DNA from: Bacteroidales bacterium UBA6397
Lineage (GTDB): Bacteria; Bacteroidota; Bacteroidia; Bacteroidales; UBA932
Assembly: GCA_002439875.1 (NCBI GenBank)
Contig: DJQB01000036.1
Coordinates: 139,079-203,078 of the forward strand
Direction of reading: 5' to 3'
Length of the DNA: 64,000 bases
Both the position numbers and the translations under genes were made by a program. The notes beneath the pieces were generated by a model. It saw only the letters and a list, made by a program, of their open reading frames with translations. It had not been told where the DNA came from and did no database searches. This document shows, piece by piece, positions 24,717 to 47,285 of the stretch. Within the stretch, counting starts at the first letter, position 1; each line of letters opens with the position of its first letter.

Positions 24717-25022
24717 TCAGACCTTTCCGAATATACTCTCAAGTTCCTCCGAGGTGTCCGGATCGCGTCTGATCCTGCGGTAATCATGACTGAAGGTGAT
24801 GCTGACAAGGCGTTCCTGATGGCAGATGCAGATCAGGCCGATGACAGCTTCGTAGTCACGAGGGGAGACCTGAACGAGATAGTCCACCCATTCCCGGAGC
24901 GGAAGGCCGCGCAGCCAGTTCACGTACACCCTCCGCCTTGCCGCGATCATATTGGCATACCTGTTCCGGAACGCATCTTCCTGCTCCTTGGAATACAGGA
25001 CATATTTCCGAAGATCCTCCAT
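24717..25022 (-). CDS. Phage hypothetical protein (101 aa)
   Basis: The ATG at 25022 overlaps the primase stop (TGATG). Confidence 0.55.
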   Translation of the reverse strand: MEDLRKYVLYSKEQEDAFRNRYANMIAARRRVYVNWLRGLPLREWVDYLVQVSPRDYEAVIGLICICHQERLVSITFSHDYRRIRRDPDTSEELESIFGKV

Positions 25023-28000
25023 CACTTCTCCCAAGGTTCGGCTTCAGTCGATTCAGCGGACTCAGTGACCGGTGGGGGAGTGCTGGCCGCGGTGCGGTTG
25101 TCCCCGATTTCCAGCGTGTCGGTGGAGATGTCCAGATCGATGCCATAGTTGACCTTGAGCGCGTCATAGTCAAAGACCATCGCGGTGGTCACACGGCTCT
25201 TGCCTGTCTCAGGATTGCTCGACACATAGGTCTTGTTCTCCAGCAGCTTGAACCGCATCGACTTGGCCGTCCCGATGAACTCAGGCGAATGCTCAAGATA
25301 GTACTTCAGCGAATCCCTCGGAATCACCTTGCCGTTCACGTCCTTGCCCTCCTTCATGTAGAGGGCCGAAAGCCGCTGGAACGCCAGATAGATGTACCGC
25401 ACACCGTGTTTGGGCTCGAACGGAACATCCGATTCCTTGATGGCGAACGGACGGTCCCCGGCGCAAAGCTTATAGTCGATGTTGATGTACGCCTGCCCGG
25501 ATGCCACCAGATTCTCCACAATCTCCCAGAATCCAGAAAGCTCGTTGTTCTGCTTGGTCTTCTGATTCTGGTCCACGCAACCCTTGCAGCAAAGCTTGAA
25601 CATCTCCTCGCTGTCAAACGGCACATCGATGTCCGTCCTCAAAGTCCTATAGGCGGCCAGCAGGATAGCCCAGTTCCTCAGGGTCCTGTCCTCGACATTG
25701 TACGACCGCACTCTGTCATTCATGTCCGACAACGTCTCATCCCACACCCTCCTGAAATCCGTCTGGAACTTGGAGCGCAACTGCAACAACTGGTTCGTCA
25801 GATGCGTAAGCCCGCGCTTCTCGACAAGCTTCAGATTCTCGTAGTTCCTCTTCTCCTGATCACTGAACGTGGTCTTGCTGAACGTCAGGAACACAAGGCG
25901 GTTGAACAGGGCTATGTCAGCGGTCGGCATCTCCTGACCGCTCATCACGACCCCGCAGTCCACAGCTGTGGTCTCACGTCTCTTGTCATTGTCCATATTC
26001 ATCCTCGAACGCCCCGCACCGTCCCATATTCCCTTCAGGAACTCCCTCTTCTCAAGGTCAAGGTTGTTCTTATATTCATCAAGATGCACCACCGCGTTGC
26101 TGACTTCCGCCACAGCCTCGGCAAGAGCCGCCTTGGTCGTGTTGTTGATGTTTGGCGCGATGTTGTTGCTGACAAAGAATGATGTAAGCGAATGTCCCAG
26201 CTCCGACTTTCCCGTGCCTTTCGGACCGAACAGATCCAGAATGGGAAAGGAGGTCGTCACTGATGTCACCACATCCTTGAACAGCGAAGCGAACAGGAAG
26301 CAAAGCGCCACCTTGGCGTTGTCCCCGAACACTGTGATGAGCTTCTCTGAATATTCCCGAAGCGTGATGGTGTTGGTCTCCGTGTAGACGAACTTCCTTG
26401 CCAGCTGGTAGCCTTGGGTGTTGTCCCTTGTGTCCAGCGCGCAACCAGGAAGATAGAACTTCTGCCCCTTGATGTCGATGATTCCGTACTTGTCCACCGG
26501 CTTGAACGTGCCGTTGTCAAGGCCGCCGTTGCCCCAAGCGTAGAAGCCCCACTTCTTCTGCCAACCCAGCTGCTTGATCTCATCAGCCGAAGGGGTTCCG
26601 TCATAGAGGAACTTCTTCAGTGAGGTAAGCTCGTTGGCCGTGGCCTCCCACACATAGTTCCCCGCTGTCTCGACCCTCGTCTTGAAATCCGTGAACGACA
26701 CAAGCTCGCTTTGGTTCAACTTCACCACCGCCTCCTGCATCTTGACGTTCCGCAGCGTGAATATTCTCCGAGCGTTCTTCTCATCCCGGATGTGGAGGAT
26801 CGGAGTCATCGTGAAATTGCTCCACCTCATGTCGTTCCCGGATCTTGAAGCTCCATAGTAGCAGTTGTTCTTGACGTAGAAGCCATAGTTCTGGAGCATC
26901 TCCTTAGTGCCGTCCTCCTTGGCCTCCGCACGCTCCTGATCATTCTTGGCCTTGAAATATTCCTGGTTCCAGATCTTCCCGAACTTGTAGGTCTTCGTGA
27001 AGGTCTCCCTGTACATGTCAGCCGAACTCTGATCCGGCACCTTGGCCAGCAGCTTGCAGACCTCGGTGATCACGGCTGCCTTCTCTGTCTGGGACGTGGC
27101 CGCGTCCATCCATTTCTTGCAGATCCAAGGAATATAATCGTTCGTCCTTTGGAGGTTGCATTCATCGAACTCGTGCTGGTGCGTCCGGAAAAACTCATCG
27201 GCATCCTTGCCAAGTTCAGCGGGCAACTCCATCACACTGACCGAAAGACCGGCCTCCGTCATCAGCTTTGCGTTCTTCTGCACTGCCTCGACTCCGGCCT
27301 TGTCGGTGTCCCCTATGATTGTGACCCTTTCAGCCCTTGTTTTCAGAAGGTCGATTTGTTCCTGAGTCAATGCCGTGCCGCAAGGAGCCACCGCGTTCTT
27401 GACTCCGATCTCGTGCAAGCGACAAACATCCAGATTGCCCTCGACAAGGTAAGCCTGCTTGGTGGCGTAGATCTGCATATTCGCCTGAAGCCACCCGAAA
27501 AGGATTCCCTTCTTCCTGTACAGCTCCGTCTCCCCGGTGTTCAAGTACTTGGGAACACCCGGTTTGTCACCGATGTAGCGTCCGGAAAACCCTGCGATGT
27601 AGCCGCTTGCCCAGAAGACCGGGAACATAATCCTGTGTCTGAACGAGTCATAGACCTGCCCGGTGTCCTCGTTCCTCTTGACCAGTCCTGCCGCAAGCAG
27701 CACGTCCTCCTTCCAGCCAAGCCCCGTCAGATACTGTTTCAGCCCACCCTTTTCAGGAGCGTAGCCTATGCCGAACAGTTCAGCGGTCTCGACCTTGATC
27801 CCGCGCTTCTTAAGGACATATTCCTTGGCGCCAGGCGACTCCTTGTACCGCTGGATGAACCACTCGGAGGCCAGCTTGTTCACTGTCATCAGCTGTGACC
27901 GCCTGAACTCCGCAGCCTTCTCTTCCGGTGTCGGCTCCTTCTTCTCGTAGTCGATTCCCAACCGCCCGGCAAGATGCTCCACGGCCTCGTAGAACGTCAT

Positions 28001-28228
28001 TCCGCGTCTCTCCATCACAAAGCTGATGGCGTCTCCGGTACGTCCGCACCCGAAGCAGTGGTACATGTTCCTCGAAGGCGTCACCACGAACGAAGGTGTC
28101 TTCTCTCCGTGGAAAGGGCAACAGCATTTGTAGTGGCTGCCTTCCCGCTTGAGCTCCACGCCCTCGTCCTGGATGATCGAGACGATGTCCCGCTCCTTGA
28201 TCTGGTCTTTTACATAGTCGGGAATCAT
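25022..28228 (-). CDS. DNA primase-helicase fusion: CHC2 zinc finger, TOPRIM, and a C-terminal P-loop NTPase
   Basis: CHC2 motif CCCPFHGEKTPSFVV...YHCFGCG. TOPRIM motifs LVEGNLDV and IIGDTDKAG. Walker A motif FGPKGTGKSE. Confidence 0.85.
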   Translation of the reverse strand: MIPDYVKDQIKERDIVSIIQDEGVELKREGSHYKCCCPFHGEKTPSFVVTPSRNMYHCFGCGRTGDAISFVMERRGMTFYEAVEHLAGRLGIDYEKKEPTPEEKAAEFRRSQLMTVNKLASEWFIQRYKESPGAKEYVLKKRGIKVETAELFGIGYAPEKGGLKQYLTGLGWKEDVLLAAGLVKRNEDTGQVYDSFRHRIMFPVFWASGYIAGFSGRYIGDKPGVPKYLNTGETELYRKKGILFGWLQANMQIYATKQAYLVEGNLDVCRLHEIGVKNAVAPCGTALTQEQIDLLKTRAERVTIIGDTDKAGVEAVQKNAKLMTEAGLSVSVMELPAELGKDADEFFRTHQHEFDECNLQRTNDYIPWICKKWMDAATSQTEKAAVITEVCKLLAKVPDQSSADMYRETFTKTYKFGKIWNQEYFKAKNDQERAEAKEDGTKEMLQNYGFYVKNNCYYGASRSGNDMRWSNFTMTPILHIRDEKNARRIFTLRNVKMQEAVVKLNQSELVSFTDFKTRVETAGNYVWEATANELTSLKKFLYDGTPSADEIKQLGWQKKWGFYAWGNGGLDNGTFKPVDKYGIIDIKGQKFYLPGCALDTRDNTQGYQLARKFVYTETNTITLREYSEKLITVFGDNAKVALCFLFASLFKDVVTSVTTSFPILDLFGPKGTGKSELGHSLTSFFVSNNIAPNINNTTKAALAEAVAEVSNAVVHLDEYKNNLDLEKREFLKGIWDGAGRSRMNMDNDKRRETTAVDCGVVMSGQEMPTADIALFNRLVFLTFSKTTFSDQEKRNYENLKLVEKRGLTHLTNQLLQLRSKFQTDFRRVWDETLSDMNDRVRSYNVEDRTLRNWAILLAAYRTLRTDIDVPFDSEEMFKLCCKGCVDQNQKTKQNNELSGFWEIVENLVASGQAYINIDYKLCAGDRPFAIKESDVPFEPKHGVRYIYLAFQRLSALYMKEGKDVNGKVIPRDSLKYYLEHSPEFIGTAKSMRFKLLENKTYVSSNPETGKSRVTTAMVFDYDALKVNYGIDLDISTDTLEIGDNRTAASTPPPVTESAESTEAEPWEK

Positions 28229-29084: not shown

Positions 29085-30002
29085 TTACTTCTCTTTCTCG
29101 TAATTCTTCTTTGCTCGCTTATGCCCGTGAGCCCTGTAAAGTATGTTTAGTTCCTTTTCTTGGCTTATGCGTTCGTAGACCTCGTCATAGGTGTAATCTG
29201 GAAACTCTTGGGCTATGATAGGGATTGTCTTGTCTTCCAATATTAACTCCTTTAATCTCTCTCGCGATATCTCGAAAATTCGCGGAGAATCGCACTTTTG
29301 GTGTTTATTATATTTTATCCGGGCTCTTTCCCTCTCCCTTCTCATCCTTTCCTCCTTTTTCTCCCTAGCATCTTCGATTTTGCCTCTATACTCGCCCCAG
29401 TCTATTATGTAATTCCTGATGGTTCCTCTGTCAACCTTGAATAATTTTTCCATTCTTCTCAGAGGCATTCCCTCCCTGTAGTTTTCCAGAATCAGTTCTT
29501 TGTATTTGTTCATTCTGGACTCCACTTTGACTTTTCTACTAGGACCATCCGCATAAGCCCTTCCCATCAGTACGCCCATTTTCCGTCTCAATTCCAGCCC
29601 TTCTTTTGTTCTCTGCCTGATCATCTGTCTCTCTATTTCCGCAGAAAGTCCAAAGGCGAACGCAAGTACCTTGCTTTGAATACTTTCGCCCAATGTAAAC
29701 CCGTCTTTCACCGTGTAGATTGTTGCCTCTCTTGCCATGCAAAAGTGGAGTATATCCATCACCATATACAGATCACGCCCGAGGCGGCTGATCTCGCTGC
29801 AAATTATGATGTCTCCCTTTTGGATTTTTTTTAGCATCGGCCCAAGATTTCTCTTGTTCGGATCTTTGCCTCCAGACACCCCCTTATCGGAAATATACTT
29901 TTCGATTGTCCACCCTTTTGCAGCTGCGAACGCATCCACTCCCTGCCTTTGGCTGTTGACATCCTGCTCATCGGATGATACTCTCAGATAACCGTAAATC
30001 AT
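29085..30002 (-). CDS. Small serine recombinase (resolvase/invertase type) with an extended C terminus
   Basis: The N-terminal catalytic motif is MIYGYLRVSSDEQD ... CSEISRLGRD ... ERQMIRQRTKEG. An HTH-like segment MPLRRMEKLFKVDRGTIRNYI follows. At 305 aa it is too short for a large serine integrase. Confidence 0.85.
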   Translation of the reverse strand: MIYGYLRVSSDEQDVNSQRQGVDAFAAAKGWTIEKYISDKGVSGGKDPNKRNLGPMLKKIQKGDIIICSEISRLGRDLYMVMDILHFCMAREATIYTVKDGFTLGESIQSKVLAFAFGLSAEIERQMIRQRTKEGLELRRKMGVLMGRAYADGPSRKVKVESRMNKYKELILENYREGMPLRRMEKLFKVDRGTIRNYIIDWGEYRGKIEDAREKKEERMRRERERARIKYNKHQKCDSPRIFEISRERLKELILEDKTIPIIAQEFPDYTYDEVYERISQEKELNILYRAHGHKRAKKNYEKEK

Positions 30003-30150: not shown

Positions 30151-30279
30151 ACCTACCAAAGTCTTAGAAAAGATGAGCGCTAAATTCACTTTTAAGATTT
30201 GGAAACTGAGATTCACGATCGAGATCGCAATCTAGTTTTGCCAACGGAGGCTGAGAGACCAGCCTCCCCTTTGGTAGGT
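30151..30279. repeat. 129-bp segment bounded by perfect 11-bp inverted repeats; candidate invertible element or structured leader
   Basis: ACCTACCAAAG at 30151..30161 pairs with CTTTGGTAGGT at 30269..30279. Inside are a 20-codon uORF (30173..30235), a TAGTTTTG box (30233..30240) and the hairpin GGAGGCTG-N6-CAGCCTCC. Confidence 0.6.
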
Positions 30280-30301
30280 GCTGCAAAAATACACAAATTG
30301 T

Positions 30302-30520
30302 ATGCAAAACAAAAATCTGTCATCTTCACAGACTCCTTCCGAGTCTCCGTCCTGGGGCGGTGCCCGTTCCGGTGCCGGCCGCAAGTCCAAGCCCCACGGA
30401 AAATCCTACACCTTCCAGTCCACCCCAGAGGTTGACGCGTTTCTCTCCTCCTATCAAGGCAATAAGACCGAGTTCATCAACCGCGCGATCCTGACCCTTG
30501 CCGGTGAGTCTCCCGAATGA
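30302..30520 (+). CDS. Small basic DNA-binding protein, possibly ribbon-helix-helix (72 aa)
   Basis: ATG at 30302 (MQNKNLSS...). Contains the motif WGGARSGAGRKSKPHGK and a C-terminal FLSSYQGNKTEFINRAILTL. Confidence 0.55.
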   Translation: MQNKNLSSSQTPSESPSWGGARSGAGRKSKPHGKSYTFQSTPEVDAFLSSYQGNKTEFINRAILTLAGESPE

Positions 30521-30659
30521 CCTCGATCTCCCATCTGTCCGACCTCTTGGCCGCAAGTTCAGCGAACTTTTCCCGTGCTTTCTCTTCGGTGTCGTAGTAC
30601 CATTCATCTACGATACCGAAGCATCTTGCCATAACGACAAATCTGACTTTTCCGTCCAT
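30477..30659 (-). CDS. Hypothetical small protein (60 aa)
   Basis: ATG at 30659 (MDGKVRFVVMARCFGIVDEWYYD). It overlaps 30302..30520 convergently by 44 nt and no promoter was seen. Confidence 0.3.
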   Translation of the reverse strand: MDGKVRFVVMARCFGIVDEWYYDTEEKAREKFAELAAKRSDRWEIEVIRETHRQGSGSRG

Positions 30660-30660
30660 A

Positions 30661-30708
30661 ACACAATAAATTAAGCGGCAACTCCAAAACACTGGAATTG
30701 CCGCTTAA
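30661..30708 (-). terminator. Terminator after the GHKL-STAS operon
   Basis: Hairpin TTAAGCGGCA-N18-TGCCGCTTAA followed on the minus strand by TTTATTGTGT. The loop is large. Confidence 0.55.
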
Positions 30709-30727: not shown

Positions 30728-31021
30728 TTAGCTTGCAGAAGTATCGAACCTCTTAACGTAGTCTCTGATGTGAGCTATTTGGCTGGCGGAAATATTGCTG
30801 AATGCGATTTTTTGGCGAACGATTTCCGCACCTTTTTCACCGATGATCTTTCCAATAGACGTATTCAAAAACATTGATGGAACAAGTGTCACATCTTTGA
30901 AATCCAAAATGATTCTGTCCTGCTTGTCAAGATTATCATTTAGTATAGAGTATAACACGTCACCCGCATCGGGGTAATTCCTACCCTGAAATATAGCTGA
31001 AACTGAAATGCGATAATCCAT
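30728..31021 (-). CDS. STAS-like protein (DUF4325-like)
   Basis: 97 aa. The pattern ILDFKDVTLVPSMFLNTSIGKII is typical of DUF4325/STAS as I recall it. It starts 1 nt after the ATPase stop. Confidence 0.6.
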   Translation of the reverse strand: MDYRISVSAIFQGRNYPDAGDVLYSILNDNLDKQDRIILDFKDVTLVPSMFLNTSIGKIIGEKGAEIVRQKIAFSNISASQIAHIRDYVKRFDTSAS

Positions 31022-31022
31022 A

Positions 31023-31904
31023 TTATAAAAGTGTTAAATCGTCTTCGATATAATTGTCTTCCAAGTGTTCAAGAGAAATTGAATACATTATCAATGTTCC
31101 CTTGAAGTGTCTCTTTAATCTTACAGACCTATCGTTATCCCCTGATGTTACCAAAGCCCCATCGTTGCTTATTATCCAAAGGGAATCGGGGTCAGTGCAA
31201 TAATCACGAAGATTCCCCAGCCCCAAACCAGCATTGTGATTGGTGGATCTGATAGTGAATCGAGGCTCCATGGCTTTCTTTATTGCTTGAACGTCATCCG
31301 TTATTTCTGGCAGCACCGTTCTTACGGATTCGGCAATACCACGGCCAAAGTCGCATACGGAAATGAAAACCTTGTTGATTCTCCTGTCATATTCAACCAT
31401 GGAGAAGGCAACTCCTTCACATAAAGAATGGTCGATGACATTGTAATACGCCTCTGTTAAACTGCCTTCAAGTGGAGTCAGGTCTTTAGCCTGAAACTTG
31501 GTGGTCCGGAAATATTCACTTATCCGTTTGGCGTGCATTTCCATCCCGTCCGCTTCAATCTTCCATAAGTTCAGAATGTCATCGTTGCCTGGTTTTACAT
31601 AGTCTTCATGCAAATTCCAGTATCTTGATATTCCGAGCTCATTTTCAAGATAGCCTTTGATTTCTTTGCTCGTTTCCAACTGGACGTGGCAACCTTTTCG
31701 CGCGCAAGATTCAATCAGACATGCAAGGGATGTGATGTGTTCTGGACGTAATTTGTCTCGTGTAATGTCATTGCTGATATTTACCACCAAATGGTTGACG
31801 CCTTTCTGTTCGATCATATATCTTCCATCGCAAATTCCGGCAAGCCAACTAAGCCTGTCGGCTGATGACAGTATTACTACTCTTATATTTGCGACTTTAA
31901 GCAT
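31023..31904 (-). CDS. GHKL-superfamily ATPase / anti-sigma-type serine kinase-like protein with an unknown N-terminal domain
   Basis: N-box EAYYNVIDHS, G1 box VCDFGRGI and G2 box NAGLGLGN. ATG at 31904; the ORF track starts at the GTG at 31910. Confidence 0.75.
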   Translation of the reverse strand: MLKVANIRVVILSSADRLSWLAGICDGRYMIEQKGVNHLVVNISNDITRDKLRPEHITSLACLIESCARKGCHVQLETSKEIKGYLENELGISRYWNLHEDYVKPGNDDILNLWKIEADGMEMHAKRISEYFRTTKFQAKDLTPLEGSLTEAYYNVIDHSLCEGVAFSMVEYDRRINKVFISVCDFGRGIAESVRTVLPEITDDVQAIKKAMEPRFTIRSTNHNAGLGLGNLRDYCTDPDSLWIISNDGALVTSGDNDRSVRLKRHFKGTLIMYSISLEHLEDNYIEDDLTLL

Positions 31905-31925
31905 AGACACATAACCTTTTCAGAG

Positions 31926-31960
31926 CAAAGATAATCTTTAGAAAATCATTTTCCAAACAA
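31926..31960 (-). promoter_or_regulatory. Bacteroidota sigma-A type promoter for the GHKL-STAS operon
   Basis: The minus strand reads TTTG-N20-TATCTTTG. The -7 box is at 31926..31933, about 20 nt upstream of the ATG. Confidence 0.65.
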
Positions 31961-31983
31961 TGTTTCTGTGATGCTCTTTTATC

Positions 31984-32000
31984 TTAACGGCAATTCCAGT
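31984..32000. repeat. Right inverted repeat flanking the GHKL-STAS cassette; its partner is at 30691..30708
   Basis: The reverse complement, ACTGGAATTGCCGTTAA, matches ACTGGAATTGCCGCTTAA at 30691..30708 (17 of 18, with a 1-nt indel). Confidence 0.6.
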
Positions 32001-32021
32001 ATTTCAAAGAACCTGTTTTCG

Positions 32022-32149
32022 TCCCCGGGAACGGAATCGAACCGCTCACATCGCGCTAGGCTTTCGGGGCGGCCCCCGCCCTCCTGGGCTTAAATCCTAC
32101 GCAAGGCCGCTTCGTGCTGGCAGGGACCCATATCCTGCCCTTTCCGGGG
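32022..32149 (-). ncRNA. tRNA-like structured RNA B (128 nt, non-canonical)
   Basis: Read on the minus strand. The ends CCCCGGA and CCCGGGG pair at 6 of 7 positions. The T arm is AGCGG-TTCGATT-CCGTT. A D-like hairpin GGCAGG-ATATGGGTC-CCTGCC is present. About 70 nt of GC-rich branched helices replace the anticodon arm. Confidence 0.4.
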
Positions 32150-32260
32150 AGTTGCCGGTCTTTCCCGGCTGTCAAACAAACTTATTATCTCAACACTACT
32201 AAACACACAGTCTTTCACCGCCCGGCGCTCCTTGACACCGTAATTGAAATTAAACTGAGA

Positions 32261-32351
32261 TCCCGTGCCGGACTCGAACCGGAATGAGTAATTAATCTGA
32301 TTTATGACTAATCGGTATTTTGCCTGCCGCTCCCCACGGAGCCACACGGGA
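32261..32351 (-). ncRNA. tRNA-like RNA A (91 nt, non-canonical)
   Basis: Read on the minus strand. The acceptor is TCCCGTG/CACGGGA (7 bp, extendable to 8). The D arm is GCTC-CGTGGG-GAGC and the T arm is CCGG-TTCGAGT-CCGG. Forty-six AT-rich nt lie between the D and T arms, so no clean anticodon arm forms. Confidence 0.45.
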
Positions 32352-32428
32352 TTGTTCACGCCTCACAGCGTTACGCTTGGCCTCTCAGGACCTCTTGTGA
32401 TAGGTTTGCCAAGACTATTTTATTGCTT

Positions 32429-32518
32429 TTACTCTTCATCATCCTCCTTGAACGCCCGCCAGTACAGCCAGACCACGAACGCCAGCATGACACCTTCAAC
32501 AATGAGATGTATCGACAT
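32429..32518 (-). CDS. Possible 29-aa single-TM peptide
   Basis: My own translation gives MSIHLIVEGVMLAFVVWLYWRAFKEDDEE. It is below the ORF-track size cutoff and overlaps the end of 32496..32822. Confidence 0.3.
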   Translation of the reverse strand: MSIHLIVEGVMLAFVVWLYWRAFKEDDEE

Positions 32519-32822
32519 ATCCTATAACATCCTCCTCAAGTATTTTCTCAAAATCCTTCAATATCTTTTTCCAGTCCCACTTGTTCGGAGCCAGCCTCGC
32601 CAATCTTGGCCCATCGAGCATCCAAGCGCCTTCCGCGCACTCCCAAGCCGCAAGACACTGCTCCAGTCTGTCAGCGATGAATTTCCTCGCAAGCGGCCTG
32701 ATGTCTTCGCCCATCTGCGCCTTGTGCCAAAGCCCGACAATGTTAACCCCTGCATCCAGATAGTGTTTCGCCATCAAATCGATGAACTTGTCCCTGTTGA
32801 CATCATATTTCTCCATAGCCAA
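32496..32822 (-). CDS. Phage hypothetical protein (108 aa)
   Basis: ORF in the leftward early operon. Confidence 0.55.
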   Translation of the reverse strand: MAMEKYDVNRDKFIDLMAKHYLDAGVNIVGLWHKAQMGEDIRPLARKFIADRLEQCLAAWECAEGAWMLDGPRLARLAPNKWDWKKILKDFEKILEEDVIGYVDTSHC

Positions 32823-32872
32823 TGAATATTAGTGATGTTGTCTCCCGTCCCAATCGTGTGTGATGACTCCCA

Positions 32873-33309: not shown

Positions 33310-33756
33310 ATGACACAAGGTGTTAAGGAAAGACTGATTACTTTTTTGAAGAATGAGGGTTTGTCGCAGGCTAAGTTTGAGCGCATCTGTGGCTTTTCCA
33401 ATGGTTATGTAAACAACATTCGTAACGGTATCGGAGCTGATAAGTTGCAGACTATTCTCTGTAAATTCCCAGCATTGAACGCCAACTGGCTTGTCAATGG
33501 AGAAGGTGAAATGTCTACTCCATCACAGAGAGCAGGGGATAATAGTGTCGTTATTGGCAGCCATAATCACCATGGCTCTTTCAACATCGATAACCGCCAA
33601 TATTATTCCGACAGCCCCGATGTCCTCAGAGCCCAAATCGAACTACTCGACGAACGCATCAAGGAGAAGGACGCCCAGATCAAGGAGAAGGACGCCCAGA
33701 TCAAGGAGAAGGACGCCCAGATAAACCGTCTCCTCTCCATCCTCGAAAAGCAATAA
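33310..33756 (+). CDS. cI-like HTH repressor with a C-terminal coiled coil
   Basis: HTH motif LSQAKFERICGFSNGYVNNIRNG and the NWLVNGEGEM motif common in Bacteroidota phage repressors. It is divergent from the early operon. Confidence 0.7.
   Translation: MTQGVKERLITFLKNEGLSQAKFERICGFSNGYVNNIRNGIGADKLQTILCKFPALNANWLVNGEGEMSTPSQRAGDNSVVIGSHNHHGSFNIDNRQYYSDSPDVLRAQIELLDERIKEKDAQIKEKDAQIKEKDAQINRLLSILEKQ
33658..33720 (+). repeat. Perfect 21-bp tandem repeat, three copies, inside the repressor gene
   Basis: ATCAAGGAGAAGGACGCCCAG occurs three times and encodes IKEKDAQ x3. Confidence 0.95.
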
Positions 33757-35713: not shown

Positions 35714-38700
35714 ATGACTATCAAGAATTTGTCTTATGCCGCAGCGATGATGTTTGTCGCGGCATCGGTCGGTTGTACATCCAACGACCTGGTTGAGAAT
35801 ATTGCCTTGAATAAGGCGGCCTGCGCTTCGTCTTCTTATGATTATAACCTTACGGCGCAGCTGGTCACGGATGGCGTTGTGGAAAATGCCGAACCCGCTT
35901 GGCTTAAAGTCTGTACGTCTGGAAGGGAATTTCCTCGGCGCGAGAAGGAATGGACCGTGGATGCCGGGCCATATTCAAGCAATAGGTTAGAGGGCGAGGC
36001 CAATTTCCTTGAATATGAATGGAGTCGACAGAGGTTTTCCGCCGGTTGTGTCCGTGTGCGTGGGTATGTGGTCTATCAGGAGCCTGCTAAAGGGTGGTCT
36101 GTCACATGCAAGGCAGGTGATTCCGGAGCGGTAATGAATCAGGTCGGGTTTGTCGGAGGCTCCGGCTTACCGGGGACAAAACGCCTCCCTGAAGTGATTA
36201 CGGATCCGAACAAACTAACCGAGTCAATCTCCCGTCCGTCCCGTGAGTTGGATTTGGAAATCCCACTCATAGATGCGGTTGACTTCAATCATTTCAAGAT
36301 TGAGTTCAATATGGACGGCGCTCTTTTCTGGGTTATCTATTCTGTGGATTTCTCAACGGAGCCGAAATTCGGAAGGAGTTCTGACACCGGACCTTATGAT
36401 TCCAAAGAATCACGTGGATTCATTGTGCTTCCGTCGGAGGTCTATTCAAGCGTGTGGATGAGCGCTGACGACAAGCCACAGTGGATTCGGATTGACCTTG
36501 GGTCGAAAAAGAAATTCAGTGAGGTTCGCCTTAATTGGATCCATAAGGCAGACGGTGGCCGCATTGAAGTATCGGACGATGGGAAGAGTTGGAAGAAGGT
36601 CGCTGATCTTCCGCAGACAGATTCTCTGGCATATTCATTCAAGGCGGTTGGAAACGCCCGTTATGTCCGTCTTTCAATGGAGGGAACAGATGAGAGCGGG
36701 CATTTTGCTTTGAGTGAGATGGAAGTGCTTGGACCTAAAGTGATTGAAGAAATCAAGCCGGAATGGAAACTTCAGCGGGCTTCAGCAGTATCAGAAATTG
36801 GCGAGGTGATTTCCGGAAATGAATATGATGACTCGGATTGGCTGCCCGCGGTCGTGCCGGGAACTGTTCTATACAGTTACATAGCTGCAGGTGCCGTGCC
36901 GGATCCCGGAATCGCGGACAACAATCTTCAGATTTCAGAATCGTTCTTCAATTCTGATTTCTGGTACAGGTGGACACCGGACACTCGGTCACTGAGCATG
37001 TCGAAGCGACCGGAAGGCGAGTCTCTGATTCTTGCATTCGATGGAATAAACTGGAAGGCAGAGGTTTATGTCAATGGAAAATTTGTGGGGAACATCGCCG
37101 GCGCCTTCAAGCGCGCCCGTTTTGACATCACGGACTTGATAATAGGCGATAAAGATGTCATAGCCGTTCACATTATAAAACCAGCCCATTATGCGGCAGT
37201 CAAGGAGAAAAACGCCGAGAGCCCGGACTTCAACGGTGGCCAGCTCGGGGCCGACAACCCGACTTTCCATGCCACTGTGGGTTGGGACTGGATGCCTACA
37301 GTCAGAGGACGCGACATGGGAATATGGAACGACATCCGGATCGAGAAGGTGAAGGCTGTGACTTTAAGTGATCCTTTGGTTCAGAGCAAGATAACGGATG
37401 GACTTGCGTCGATGACCGTTTCGGTCAAGATTGTGGACGGAACTTACAAGTCGCTTCGACAGGCCCAGCGACCAGAGAAAACCATCTGCGGAACCCTGCG
37501 TGGAACCATCGGCGGCATCGAGTTCTCAAAGATAGTGGAATTGAAAGCAGGGGAGAGTGGAACTATCATATTCACTCCCGAGGAATATCCTCAACTGAAG
37601 AATCAGGAAATCGCTCTTTGGTGGCCTAACGGCTACGGCGAGCCTGCTTTGCACAAAGCTACCTTCACATTCATTCCTGACGGAGCGACAGAAGCGATGA
37701 CATCTATCGAATGGCAGGCCGGCATCAGGGAATTCACCTACGGTGATGTTATGAGTGACCTTAAGATGTTCATCAACGGCCGCCGCTTCTTCCCTAAAGG
37801 CGGCAACTGGGGCTTCAGCGAATATAACCTCCGCTATAGGGCTGATGAATATGAAAACGCGGTCCGTATGCACAAGGACATGAATATGAATATGATCCGT
37901 AACTGGGTCGGCCAGACGGGCGATGAGGAGTTCTATGAAGCCTGCGACAAGTATGGAATAGTAGTATGGCAGGATTTCTGGCTGGCCAACCCGGCAGACG
38001 GCCCTGATCCAGATGACAATGAGATGTTCCTTGACAATGCCAGAGATTATGTCAGCCTGATCCGCAAACATCCGAGCATCGGTCTGTACTGTGGTCGTAA
38101 CGAGGGCTATCCTCCGGCAGCGTTGAACGCCGGTCTGACAGAGACCGTTAACGCTCTTCATTCAGACATCGTTTATATTCCAAGCTCAGCCGATGACGGT
38201 GTCAGCGGCCACGGCCCTTACCGTGCCGTCGAGCCTTCGTACTACTTCGAAAACCCGACTGCCAAGTTCCACAGCGAGAGGGGAATGCCTGCGATCATGG
38301 AATATGAAAGCCTGCGTCAGATGCTCACTCCGGACCATCTCTGGCCTACGAACGATGTCTGGGGACAGCATGATTTCACAAGAACGGGAGCTCAGGGCGA
38401 CACAGCGTTTGTCGGAATGGTAAGAAGGCGTTTCGGAGAGCAGGCGATGGAGTCCGCCGAGACGTTCGCGAAATATGCCCAGTGGGTCAACTATGATGGC
38501 TACCGTGCCATGTACGAGGCGAACAACGTCGGTCGTAAAGGACTCCTGATCTGGATGTCACATAGTGCCTGGCCAAGCCTTGCATGGCAGACCTACGATT
38601 ATTGGTTCCGTCCGACCGCGGCCTGTGCCGCTGTCAGAAAGGCCTGTGAGCCTCTGCACATCCAGTTAAATCCAGCGTCAAGCCATGTAGAAGTGGTGAA

Positions 38701-47211: not shown

Positions 47212-47212
47212 G

Positions 47213-47285
47213 TGGAGCATAGGAGGATCGAACTCCTGACCTCAAGATTGCGAACCTTGCGCTCTACCAGCTGAGCTAATACCCC
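47213..47285 (-). tRNA. tRNA-Ala (anticodon CGC)
   Basis: Manual cloverleaf. The acceptor GGGGTAT/ATGCTCC includes a G3:U70 pair. The D arm is GCTC-AGCTGGTA-GAGC. The anticodon arm is CAAGG-TTCGCAA-TCTTG. The T arm is AGGAG-TTCGATC-CTCCT. CCA is not encoded. Confidence 0.9.

Follow-up and report, generated by a model that had tools for sequence, protein, structure and literature searches.

Mimicry of transfer RNA (tRNA) is known from RNA viruses, from transfer-messenger RNA (tmRNA), from Y RNAs and from a small number of immunity RNAs in coliphages. What RNase P, RNase Z and the CCA-adding enzyme read in a tRNA is its top half, made up of the minihelix, the T loop and the elbow. In vertebrates, RNase P and RNase Z cut a tRNA-shaped module (mascRNA), with an anticodon region of poor conservation, out of the longer MALAT1 and MEN-beta transcripts; this frees a small tRNA-like RNA, and the upstream RNA keeps a protective 3' structure. 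Among phages, P1 and P7 make c4 RNAs and P4 a CI RNA, small RNAs that RNase P releases from an early or immunity transcript by virtue of their tRNA-like fold, and species 1 and 2 of phage T4 (rnaC and rnaD) are stable small RNAs with tRNA-like ends that are cotranscribed and matured with tRNAs. We describe here two tRNA-shaped elements, A and B, in the early operon of a prophage carried by Bacteroidales bacterium UBA6397. They lie in a stretch of 64,000 nucleotides (nt) of contig DJQB01000036.1, the whole of which is called the window below.

Two tRNA-like elements had been pointed out on the minus strand by an original prediction made from the sequence of the window, and every sequence feature listed there was found in place (Table 1). 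The GG of the D loop and the TTCGAnT form of the T loop, said to be kept in both elements, are present in A and in B, and the T loops are canonical. Acceptor and T stem add up to 12 base pairs (bp) in either element, 8+4 in A and 7+5 in B, and 12 bp is the length of a tRNA minihelix. The acceptor of A, initially given as 7-8 bp, extends to 8 bp, and the limits of the element, first placed at 32351-32261, become 32352-32260.

Read on the minus strand, A has no anticodon arm, and neither has B, whose inner domain is ~70 nt long. Anticodon-like motifs had been proposed for both elements, and neither proposal held when relatives were compared. The hairpin CCGATT-AGTCATA-AATCAG of A, with its central UCA, is restricted to the window-type allele. 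In B, the heptamer AUUUAAG (a U-UUA-A pattern) is replaced in relatives by AUGUAAAG, AUUAAG or AUUUGAG, and as it varies in both length and sequence, it is no anticodon loop. A 5-bp anticodon stem with a 7-nt loop, conserved among homologues, was found in neither A nor B.

The two elements stand out within the window. Exact matches to the T-loop pattern GGTTCRANTCC over the 64 kb are A and B only. A wider descriptor, composed of a T arm with G53-C61, a fully paired 12-bp acceptor and T stack and a GG D hairpin, with 45-190 nt between, retrieved exactly A and B from both strands of the window and nothing from 60 block-shuffled windows; this descriptor is post hoc, having been written after the elements were seen. 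Folding energies of single sequences gave modest z-scores (-2.6 to -3.1 for A, about -1 for B), so the case rests on comparison with relatives and not on folding energy. Read on the plus strand, the frequent G-U pairs of both elements would turn into A-C mismatches, which designates the minus strand as the RNA strand.

Relatives were collected by exact and degenerate pattern searches and by protein-anchored searches. They come from IMG/VR contigs, from six contigs of metagenome-assembled genomes of Bacteroidales or Bacteroidaceae (one of them binned as Lachnospiraceae), and from 33 human-gut metagenome contigs. In all, about 60 related contigs, prophage or viral, of human-gut Bacteroidales have these elements. 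At the 33 metagenome loci found via c5, a protein encoded in the same operon, B is present in 30 and A in 22. The covariance model R1 scored B at 115-168 bits in 30 of these 33 loci and in all six genome loci, and the model R2 recovered A in 28 loci, representing 15 distinct sequences. No B was detected by R1 upstream of primases 55-64% identical to that of the window, the descriptor for a tRNA top half with an insert found nothing in distant loci, and loop-only patterns in IMG/VR gave nothing beyond this lineage.

Covariation across homologous prophages had been suggested as a check on the proposed helices, and it yielded compensatory changes in all three helices of A, as well as in helix H1 of B. 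For A, the minimum free energy fold retained the acceptor, D and T helices in 8/8 alleles. Over the 17 pairs of this shell, pairing was 100% in nine alleles and 99.6% in 15 alleles; when the 3' partners were shifted by one to three columns, it was only 35-57%. In the acceptor, a C-G pair is changed on both sides to U-A. The D stem shows a compensatory change from C-G to U-A, together with a series G-C, G-U, A-U, and in the T stem C-G becomes A-U in locus L052, whose T loop reads UUCGACU. The centre of A behaves otherwise: it ranges from 46 to 64 nt among alleles, with an identity of 0.30-0.37 versus ~0.9 for the shell, its sequences are not alignable, and no fold is shared among alleles.

Two observations on the A shell can be added. 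The sole unpaired cell in the A alignment is a C-C mismatch of the acceptor in L098 (2957-3069) and L100 (1734-1846), which have CGCCGGAU in place of CGCGGGAU. An unrelated viral contig (L002, 9800-9870, minus strand) has only the 3' part of the shell, GCCGGTTCGAGTCCGGCACGGGAG, with a 5-bp T stem; the 5' half is missing and ARAGORN makes no call. It may be a tRNA fragment of the attP type, a hint that the A shell was derived from a real host tRNA.

In B, 96-98% of the alignment cells are paired (alignments A1 and A4). Three pairs of H1 are altered on both sides among alleles, the helix taking the forms GCGGCC/GGCCGC, GGCAGAC/GUCUGCU, GGCGG/CCGCC and GGCGGAGC/GCUCCGUC. Helix H0 is 91% paired and its changes are one-sided; the T stem has GU, GC and AU variants, and the pair 1-72 is either UA or UG. 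The loop inside H1 preserves the motif AGGAUUURAGCCNAGGAG together with the small hairpin. Identity between B alleles is 83-91%, for 88-93% in the primase gene and 51-92% in c5 and c7. The complement of the conserved loop is absent elsewhere in the 64-kb window. A UGCG/CGCR pseudoknot is possible in B; its register is ambiguous, since the CGCGCG repeat permits several registers and no double change occurs.

The succession H1, UUGCG, GCCC-AGGA-GGGC, H1', CGCGA in the inner domain of B resembles the nested double pseudoknot of hepatitis delta virus (HDV)-like ribozymes. Its L3, however, measures only 4 nt. The CC required for P1.1 is absent from the L007 and L023 alleles, and the putative P2 is broken by single changes. 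With no more than a partial fit of the topology and no Rfam match, B was not assigned to the HDV-like ribozymes, the theta type included.

Searches for known RNA families were negative. ARAGORN, run in default, intron and tmRNA modes and relaxed to 80%, made no credible call for A or B; with thresholds at 70-80% only meaningless calls appeared, the only true call in the window being the host tRNA-Ala. With Rfam 15 the region had no match at the gathering score or at E<=10, six related loci were likewise without a match, and ROOL, GOLLD and the other ornate RNAs of Rfam were found neither in the window nor in these six loci. The idea that A or B might be an ordinary tRNA, a tmRNA, or a YrlA, ROOL or GOLLD RNA can thus be set aside, both the ARAGORN and the Rfam checks being negative. 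Collections of annotated phages, plasmids and E. coli gave no DNA match, and literature searches turned up no description of elements resembling A and B. A weak Rfam match to the DUF2693 RNA just beside B (31925-32012, minus strand; 12.9 bits, E = 8, for a gathering score of 81) relies on GUUCUUUGAAAUACUGGA, the conserved start of the cargo cassette, and is probably due to chance or to a shared promoter-region motif.

We conclude that A and B are, with high probability, selected and structured tRNA-shaped RNAs. Of the two options left by the original prediction, that of a structured tRNA-mimic RNA is the one supported by the conservation and the compensatory changes in relatives. The elements are most probably not decoding tRNAs, pseudogenes, tmRNA, YrlA or antisense RNAs of the c4/CI type. 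Conserved tRNA-shaped modules lacking an anticodon arm, absent from Rfam, are found in the early operon of widespread prophages of human-gut Bacteroidales.

Table 1. Coordinates of elements A and B, their helices, the accompanying hairpins and neighbouring features (positions in the window; sequences of elements in RNA sense).
Feature	Position	Strand	Description
Element A	32352-32260	minus	tRNA-shaped RNA; from reading of the sequence and comparison with relatives
A acceptor	32352-32345 with 32267-32260	minus	8 bp, AUCCCGUG/CACGGGAU
A D hairpin	32342-32329	minus	GCUCC-GUGG-GGAGC; separated from the acceptor by a two-base linker
A centre	32328-32283	minus	46 nt, AU-rich; replaces anticodon arm and variable loop
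A T arm	32282-32268	minus	4-bp stem CCGG/CCGG, loop UUCGAGU
A discriminator position	C32259	minus	
Element B	32150-32022	minus	tRNA-shaped RNA, 129 nt; from reading of the sequence and comparison with relatives
B acceptor		minus	7 bp, UCCCCGG/CCGGGGA; U1 pairs with A or G at 72
B D arm		minus	6-bp stem GGCAGG/CCUGCC, loop AUAUGGGUC; linker AAAG before the D stem
B helix H0		minus	CACG(U)/(A)UGUG; closes the inner domain beside the T arm
B helix H1		minus	GCGGCC/GGCCGC; around conserved loop UAGGAUUUAAGCCCAGGAGG with small hairpin GCCC-AGGA-GGGC
B T arm		minus	5-bp stem AGCGG/CCGUU, loop UUCGAUU; an additional C precedes the acceptor strand
B discriminator position	C32021	minus	
HP1	32392-32379	minus	GGUC-CUGAGA-GGCC; upstream of A
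HP2	32371-32358	minus	ACGCU-GUGA-GGCGU; GNRA tetraloop, ends 5 nt before A
HP3	32220-32208	minus	CGGU-GAAAG-ACUG; in the A-B spacer
HP4	32169-32154	minus	GCCGG-GAAAGA-CCGGC; ends 3 nt before B
Repressor-like gene, helix-turn-helix (HTH)	33310-33756	plus	divergent from the early leftward unit
Early promoter -7 box	33234-33227	minus	Bacteroidetes type, TATATTTG; early leftward unit
c5	32822-32496	minus	about 100 amino acids; coding score 27
29-codon open reading frame (ORF)	32518-32429	minus	hydrophobic peptide MSIHLIVEGVMLAFVVWLYWRAFKEDDEE; positive codon-usage score; last coding gene before the RNA array
Cassette promoter -7 box	31933-31926	minus	TTTG-N20-TATCTTTG; GHKL-like/DUF4325 cassette
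GHKL-like ATPase and DUF4325 STAS-like cassette	30728-31910	minus	starts right after B
Host tRNA-Ala(CGC)	47212-47285	minus	Bacteroidetes box TATATTTG; CCA not encoded

Phage genes, those of the tail included, occupy positions ~1-35600 of the window, and host carbohydrate genes begin at 35714. The primase (25022-28228) has ~30% identity to primases of Porphyromonas gingivalis phages. In the sense of the RNA, the divergent HTH gene is followed by the promoter box, c12, c5, the 29-amino-acid peptide, HP1, HP2, A, HP3, HP4 and B. Beyond B come either a cassette with its own promoter or a 63-amino-acid ORF, then a convergent ribbon-helix-helix (RHH)-like gene, optional recombinase cassettes, c6, c7 and the primase. 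The placement announced for the two elements, downstream of the early promoter and upstream of that of the GHKL/DUF4325 cassette, was correct. As for the box itself, TAnnTTTG was found 47 times in the window for 24 expected from shuffles, an excess of about twofold. No intrinsic terminator was predicted in 31950-32450, and in cargo-less relatives only 26 nt, devoid of a promoter box, separate B from the 63-amino-acid ORF, which has the same orientation. This arrangement places A and B inside the early polycistronic unit and not at its end.

The gap of 585 bp that houses the RNA elements had been described as noncoding; it also contains the 29-codon ORF and four conserved hairpins. Coding by two other ORFs of the gap (32090-32359, minus strand, and 32304-32825, plus strand) was considered and rejected, their codon scores being low and the indels among alleles not being multiples of three. 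As tRNA finders overlook both elements, annotation would show there either an empty gap or the first of these ORFs, a spurious one of 89 amino acids.

A hairpin of the GNRA type stands 3-6 nt ahead of each element. The loop of HP2 is GUGA, GCGA or GGGA and its stem shows U-G/C-G variation; variation of the loop at the N position only is the signature of a selected GNRA tetraloop. HP4, predicted by RNAalifold, is present in every B-bearing locus and is kept in the deletion variants L060 and L114. The 3' side of HP3 is ACUG, ACCG or GCCG, and its GNRAG loop is GAAAG, GAGAG or GCGAG. Further upstream, the stem of HP1 covaries among alleles (GGUC/GGCC, CGGC/GCCG, GGUC/GACC, AGGU/ACCU). Some alleles have a U-rich tract behind HP3 (UAUUUUUUGG in the L013 type), with which this hairpin may form an attenuator or a weak terminator.

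No Pfam or PHROG match was obtained for c5, and c5, the peptide ORF and the RNA elements travel as one accessory module. The 29-codon ORF overlaps the end of c5, and two diverged forms of it are conserved in relatives. The peptide resembles small membrane or toxin-like phage peptides. Just past its stop codon, a conserved GUCUUGGCAAAYC contains a -7-type box on the opposite strand, TAGGTTTG (32401-32408, plus strand), which is exact only in some alleles. From this putative box an antisense transcript of the peptide ORF would be made, in a layout like that of type I toxin-antitoxin systems.

On the other side of B, the GHKL-like ATPase belongs to PHROG 3364 and has a weak match to the DrmA region in PADLOC. 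An 80-amino-acid RHH/CopG-like protein (30278-30520, plus strand), well conserved, converges on a 71-amino-acid ORF of the early strand (30477-30692, minus strand); the longer ORFs listed mechanically around 30278-30692 look spurious. Between B and the primase, the window has a serine resolvase/invertase and a 96-amino-acid protein (29085-30002, minus strand), and the same interval in L014, L004 and other relatives has a 316-amino-acid tyrosine recombinase and a 186-amino-acid protein with a methyltransferase-like motif, EPTAGNGS.

Loci with A and B, with B only and with A only all exist. L013 and L023 have HP3, HP4 and B, and A is absent from them. L052 and L064 have HP2 and A, with no spacer and no B; the cargo junction AACAGGTTCTTTGAAATACTGG comes after A in these two loci, and after B in the window. 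In L060 and L114, HP3 and HP4 are kept, and B and the cargo are lost, while L066 is devoid of c5, the peptide and all the RNAs. At position 1590-1760 of L001 (minus strand), a 51-codon ORF of AP2-like look (MSKGCIYSEWQNNLGRGGVRAGRLRWVAEISIRGKRYRFRSTNYANAVGWLEKMSETTV) has been inserted precisely where A stops, on its 3' side, and the spacer begins. The cargo following B is a GHKL-like ATPase with DUF4325, or an aspartyl-protease/SEC-C protein with a small partner, or none. An unrelated prophage (L007 and L087) has the block HP3-HP4-B-GHKL-DUF4325 as well, immediately behind its endolysin gene and beside its integrase; there the proteins of the GHKL/DUF4325 cassette (L007 4545-5721, L087 4442-5618) are 91-97% identical to those of the window. 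To judge from these contigs, A and B are accessory and portable, interchangeable in position, and gained or lost independently. As they are interchangeable at the same junction, their function would rest on what they share, the tRNA-like top half.

We tentatively favour a model in which A and B are tRNA-scaffolded noncoding RNAs that are excised by RNase P and RNase Z and thereby punctuate the operon, B bringing in addition a payload with a function of its own. The two elements would be transcribed from the minus strand within the first early polycistronic transcript, which would run from c12 through the next gene. RNase P would cut at the 5' end of each element and RNase Z after the discriminator C, and the CCA-adding enzyme would finish the 3' end, CCA being not encoded. 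The geometry that these processing enzymes gauge is preserved in both elements: a coaxial 12-bp stack of acceptor and T stem, a canonical T loop, and a D hairpin with GG as partner for the elbow. The addition of CCA after transcription is the norm in this host, as its tRNA-Ala gene has no encoded CCA either. The upstream piece of messenger RNA would be left with a stable GNRA-type hairpin at its end (HP2 or HP4) and so be protected from 3' exonucleases, and the downstream cistron or cargo would be uncoupled from the upstream RNA. Two stable small RNAs would be freed: A, a scaffold with a loosely constrained AU-rich insert, and B, a scaffold with a conserved structured payload domain, presumed to bind a partner. 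Use of the same junction, the stable hairpin ahead of each element and the promoterless cistron after B all point to tRNA-like processing modules, and the conservation of B over its whole length suggests that excised B has its own function.

Several points weigh against this reading. Cleavage by RNase P and RNase Z is inferred from shape alone, and transcription, the addition of CCA and an action in trans are likewise inferences. The homologues represent a single phage lineage, with one case of lateral transfer besides; the shuffle controls ignore relatedness, and the covariation counts are small and confounded by it. The acceptor, D and T stems of B are nearly invariant, so that pairing is compatible with the data and not independently proven by covariation. 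Neither core is canonical: A has a 5-bp D hairpin with a 4-nt loop and a position 8 that is not U in every allele, and B has a 4-nt linker between acceptor and D stem, a 6-bp D stem and an extra C between T stem and acceptor. The Rfam tRNA model (RF00005) is silent on both elements even at E<=10. The elements are dispensable for the phage, since some relatives lack them (L060, L114, L066). Conservation of B over its whole length exceeds what processing alone requires. Finally, a search for promoters belonging to A or B themselves brought out a -7-like box, TAAGTTTG (32184-32177, minus strand), which lies between HP3 and HP4 in alleles of the window type and the L003 type only; B might have its own promoter in some phages.

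A broader proposal, which we regard as rather doubtful, is that the top half is a natural tRNA scaffold by which gut Bacteroidales phages enlist RNase P, RNase Z and CCA addition to excise, stabilise and perhaps CCA-tag or charge unrelated payloads of their messenger RNAs, that the payload of B is a new RNA domain, and that the ends of the elements are breakpoints for the shuffling of cassettes among phages. If this were true, the pseudoknot-like AGGAUUURAGCCNAGGAG payload of B might serve as an aptamer, or else as a decoy aimed at the translation machinery of the host or at tRNA-directed defence. Element B also makes a clear-cut candidate for a structured RNA domain of a new kind, which would have a ligand or partner.

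Rather than punctuating the operon, A and B could act in trans, as tRNA mimics or decoys expressed early and titrating or misleading a factor, of the host or of a competitor, that recognises the top half, processing being then only their route of maturation. Candidate targets would be a tRNA-targeting defence nuclease or toxin, a nucleotidyltransferase or acetyltransferase toxin, EF-Tu, an aminoacyl-tRNA synthetase or a modification enzyme. The full-length conservation of the payload domain and loops of B fits such a role, as does the position of the accessory module next to a hot spot of accessory and defence-like cassettes. Phage tRNAs have moreover been proposed to counter tRNA-targeting defences (PMC10264068). 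Yet anticodon nucleases usually strike the anticodon loop, which both elements lack, the centre of A is not conserved, A and B swap position despite unrelated inner domains, and no partner gene co-varies with them except c5 and the peptide. On balance this explanation seems to us unlikely.

Cis-acting transcription elements, either RNAs like put or nut that modify RNA polymerase for read-through of the early operon, or structured terminators or insulators shielding the cassette downstream, would be expected at about this place: A and B are ~0.9-1.2 kb downstream of the early promoter, like nut and tR1 of lambdoid phages, a U-rich tract follows HP3 in some alleles, and a cargo with its own promoter begins right after B. 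Put and nut RNAs, however, are characterised neither by an exact T loop of tRNA nor by a minihelix of 12 bp. The promoterless ORF 26 nt downstream indicates that B is no efficient terminator, and in L007 B follows a late lysis gene. We hold a cis-acting role in transcription to be quite improbable.

The original prediction had also listed a recombination target among the candidate roles. A and B would then work at the DNA level, as targets of recombination or integration for cassette exchange, in the manner of att sites in tRNA genes. Mosaic junctions do lie at the 3' ends of the elements (the ORF after A in L001, the cargo after B, or after A in L052), B and its cargo are deleted after HP4 in L060 and L114, and optional serine or tyrosine recombinase genes are located a few hundred bp downstream. 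But no duplicated att-like copy was found: none of the cassettes is bordered by another copy, or a direct repeat, of the 3' halves, and there is one T-loop match per element. It is a folded RNA that selection acts on, to judge from the compensatory changes and the G-U pairs, and junctions at the ends of the elements are also expected if recombinants that break a selected RNA are lost. This makes a DNA-level target very unlikely.

For A alone, an antisense immunity or regulatory RNA of the P1 c4 or P4 CI kind could be imagined, matured by RNase P, in which the variable centre would pair with a target in the phage and set the immunity type; a variable centre within a conserved, processable scaffold, in an early operon and near a repressor gene, is what such an RNA would look like. 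We consider it highly improbable, given that complements to the A centre in the window are at chance level (best run 12 nt, G-U included), that, for four alleles, shuffled centres gave duplex energies over +-5 kb as good as the real ones, and that Rfam C4 gives no match. Lastly, the notion that A and B are functionless, whether as decaying pseudogenes of tRNAs or as tRNA genes disrupted by dead insertions (the option of degenerate tRNA genes in the original prediction), is hardly credible. In its favour, the anticodon arm is missing, ARAGORN and Rfam make no call and some relatives lack the elements; against it, compensatory changes preserve pairing, B is as conserved as the primase gene, and the elements occur in about 30 of the 33 c5-bearing gut loci, B having even moved within a block to another phage.

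How do A and B, taken as excised tRNA-shaped RNAs, compare with described systems? With canonical phage tRNA genes they share the acceptor, the GG D hairpin, the UUCGANU T loop, the 12-bp stack and a CCA that is not encoded, as well as a location in a phage accessory region that receives small ORFs and cassettes. They differ in that the anticodon stem-loop is replaced by an unstructured insert of 46-64 nt (A) or a branched domain of ~70 nt (B), and in a non-canonical D-arm geometry, and both ARAGORN and the Rfam tRNA model miss them. A tmRNA likewise combines an acceptor and T arm with a non-tRNA domain, here with a possible pseudoknot, between the D region and the T arm. B, in contrast, is 129 nt long, with no tag ORF, a true 6-bp D stem and no G3-U70, and the tmRNA mode of ARAGORN and Rfam are negative.

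YrlA RNAs have a capped acceptor, and their 5' and 3' ends pair on the anticodon side to make the stem that Ro binds. YrlA has been described as a noncoding RNA that mimics the T arm, D arm and acceptor of tRNA and is often associated with phages or prophages (PMC4201824). The termini of A and B, on the contrary, sit in the acceptor stem, and no Rfam match was obtained at E<=10. Among the neighbouring proteins scanned, in a window that was not scanned exhaustively, none gave a Ro/TROVE-type match indicating rsr (Ro60). The c4 and CI RNAs differ by antisense loops that act on sites of the same operon and are not known to have a canonical T loop, and A and B have no match to Rfam RF01695. T4 species 1 and 2 belong to another phage and another host, and are not known to be related in sequence to A and B.

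For the model that we favour, MALAT1/mascRNA would be the closest functional analogy. It is eukaryotic, is unrelated in sequence and uses a triple helix as protection, whereas here protection would come from a GNRA-capped hairpin and processing is proposed from shape. Were the model true, it would explain how polycistronic RNA is uncoupled in a phylum that does without classical Shine-Dalgarno-led translation and whose RNA processing is poorly understood. If RNase P and RNase Z do cut A and B, these elements would be the counterpart, in a bacterial virus, of MALAT1/mascRNA, and a natural version of the engineered tRNA scaffold.

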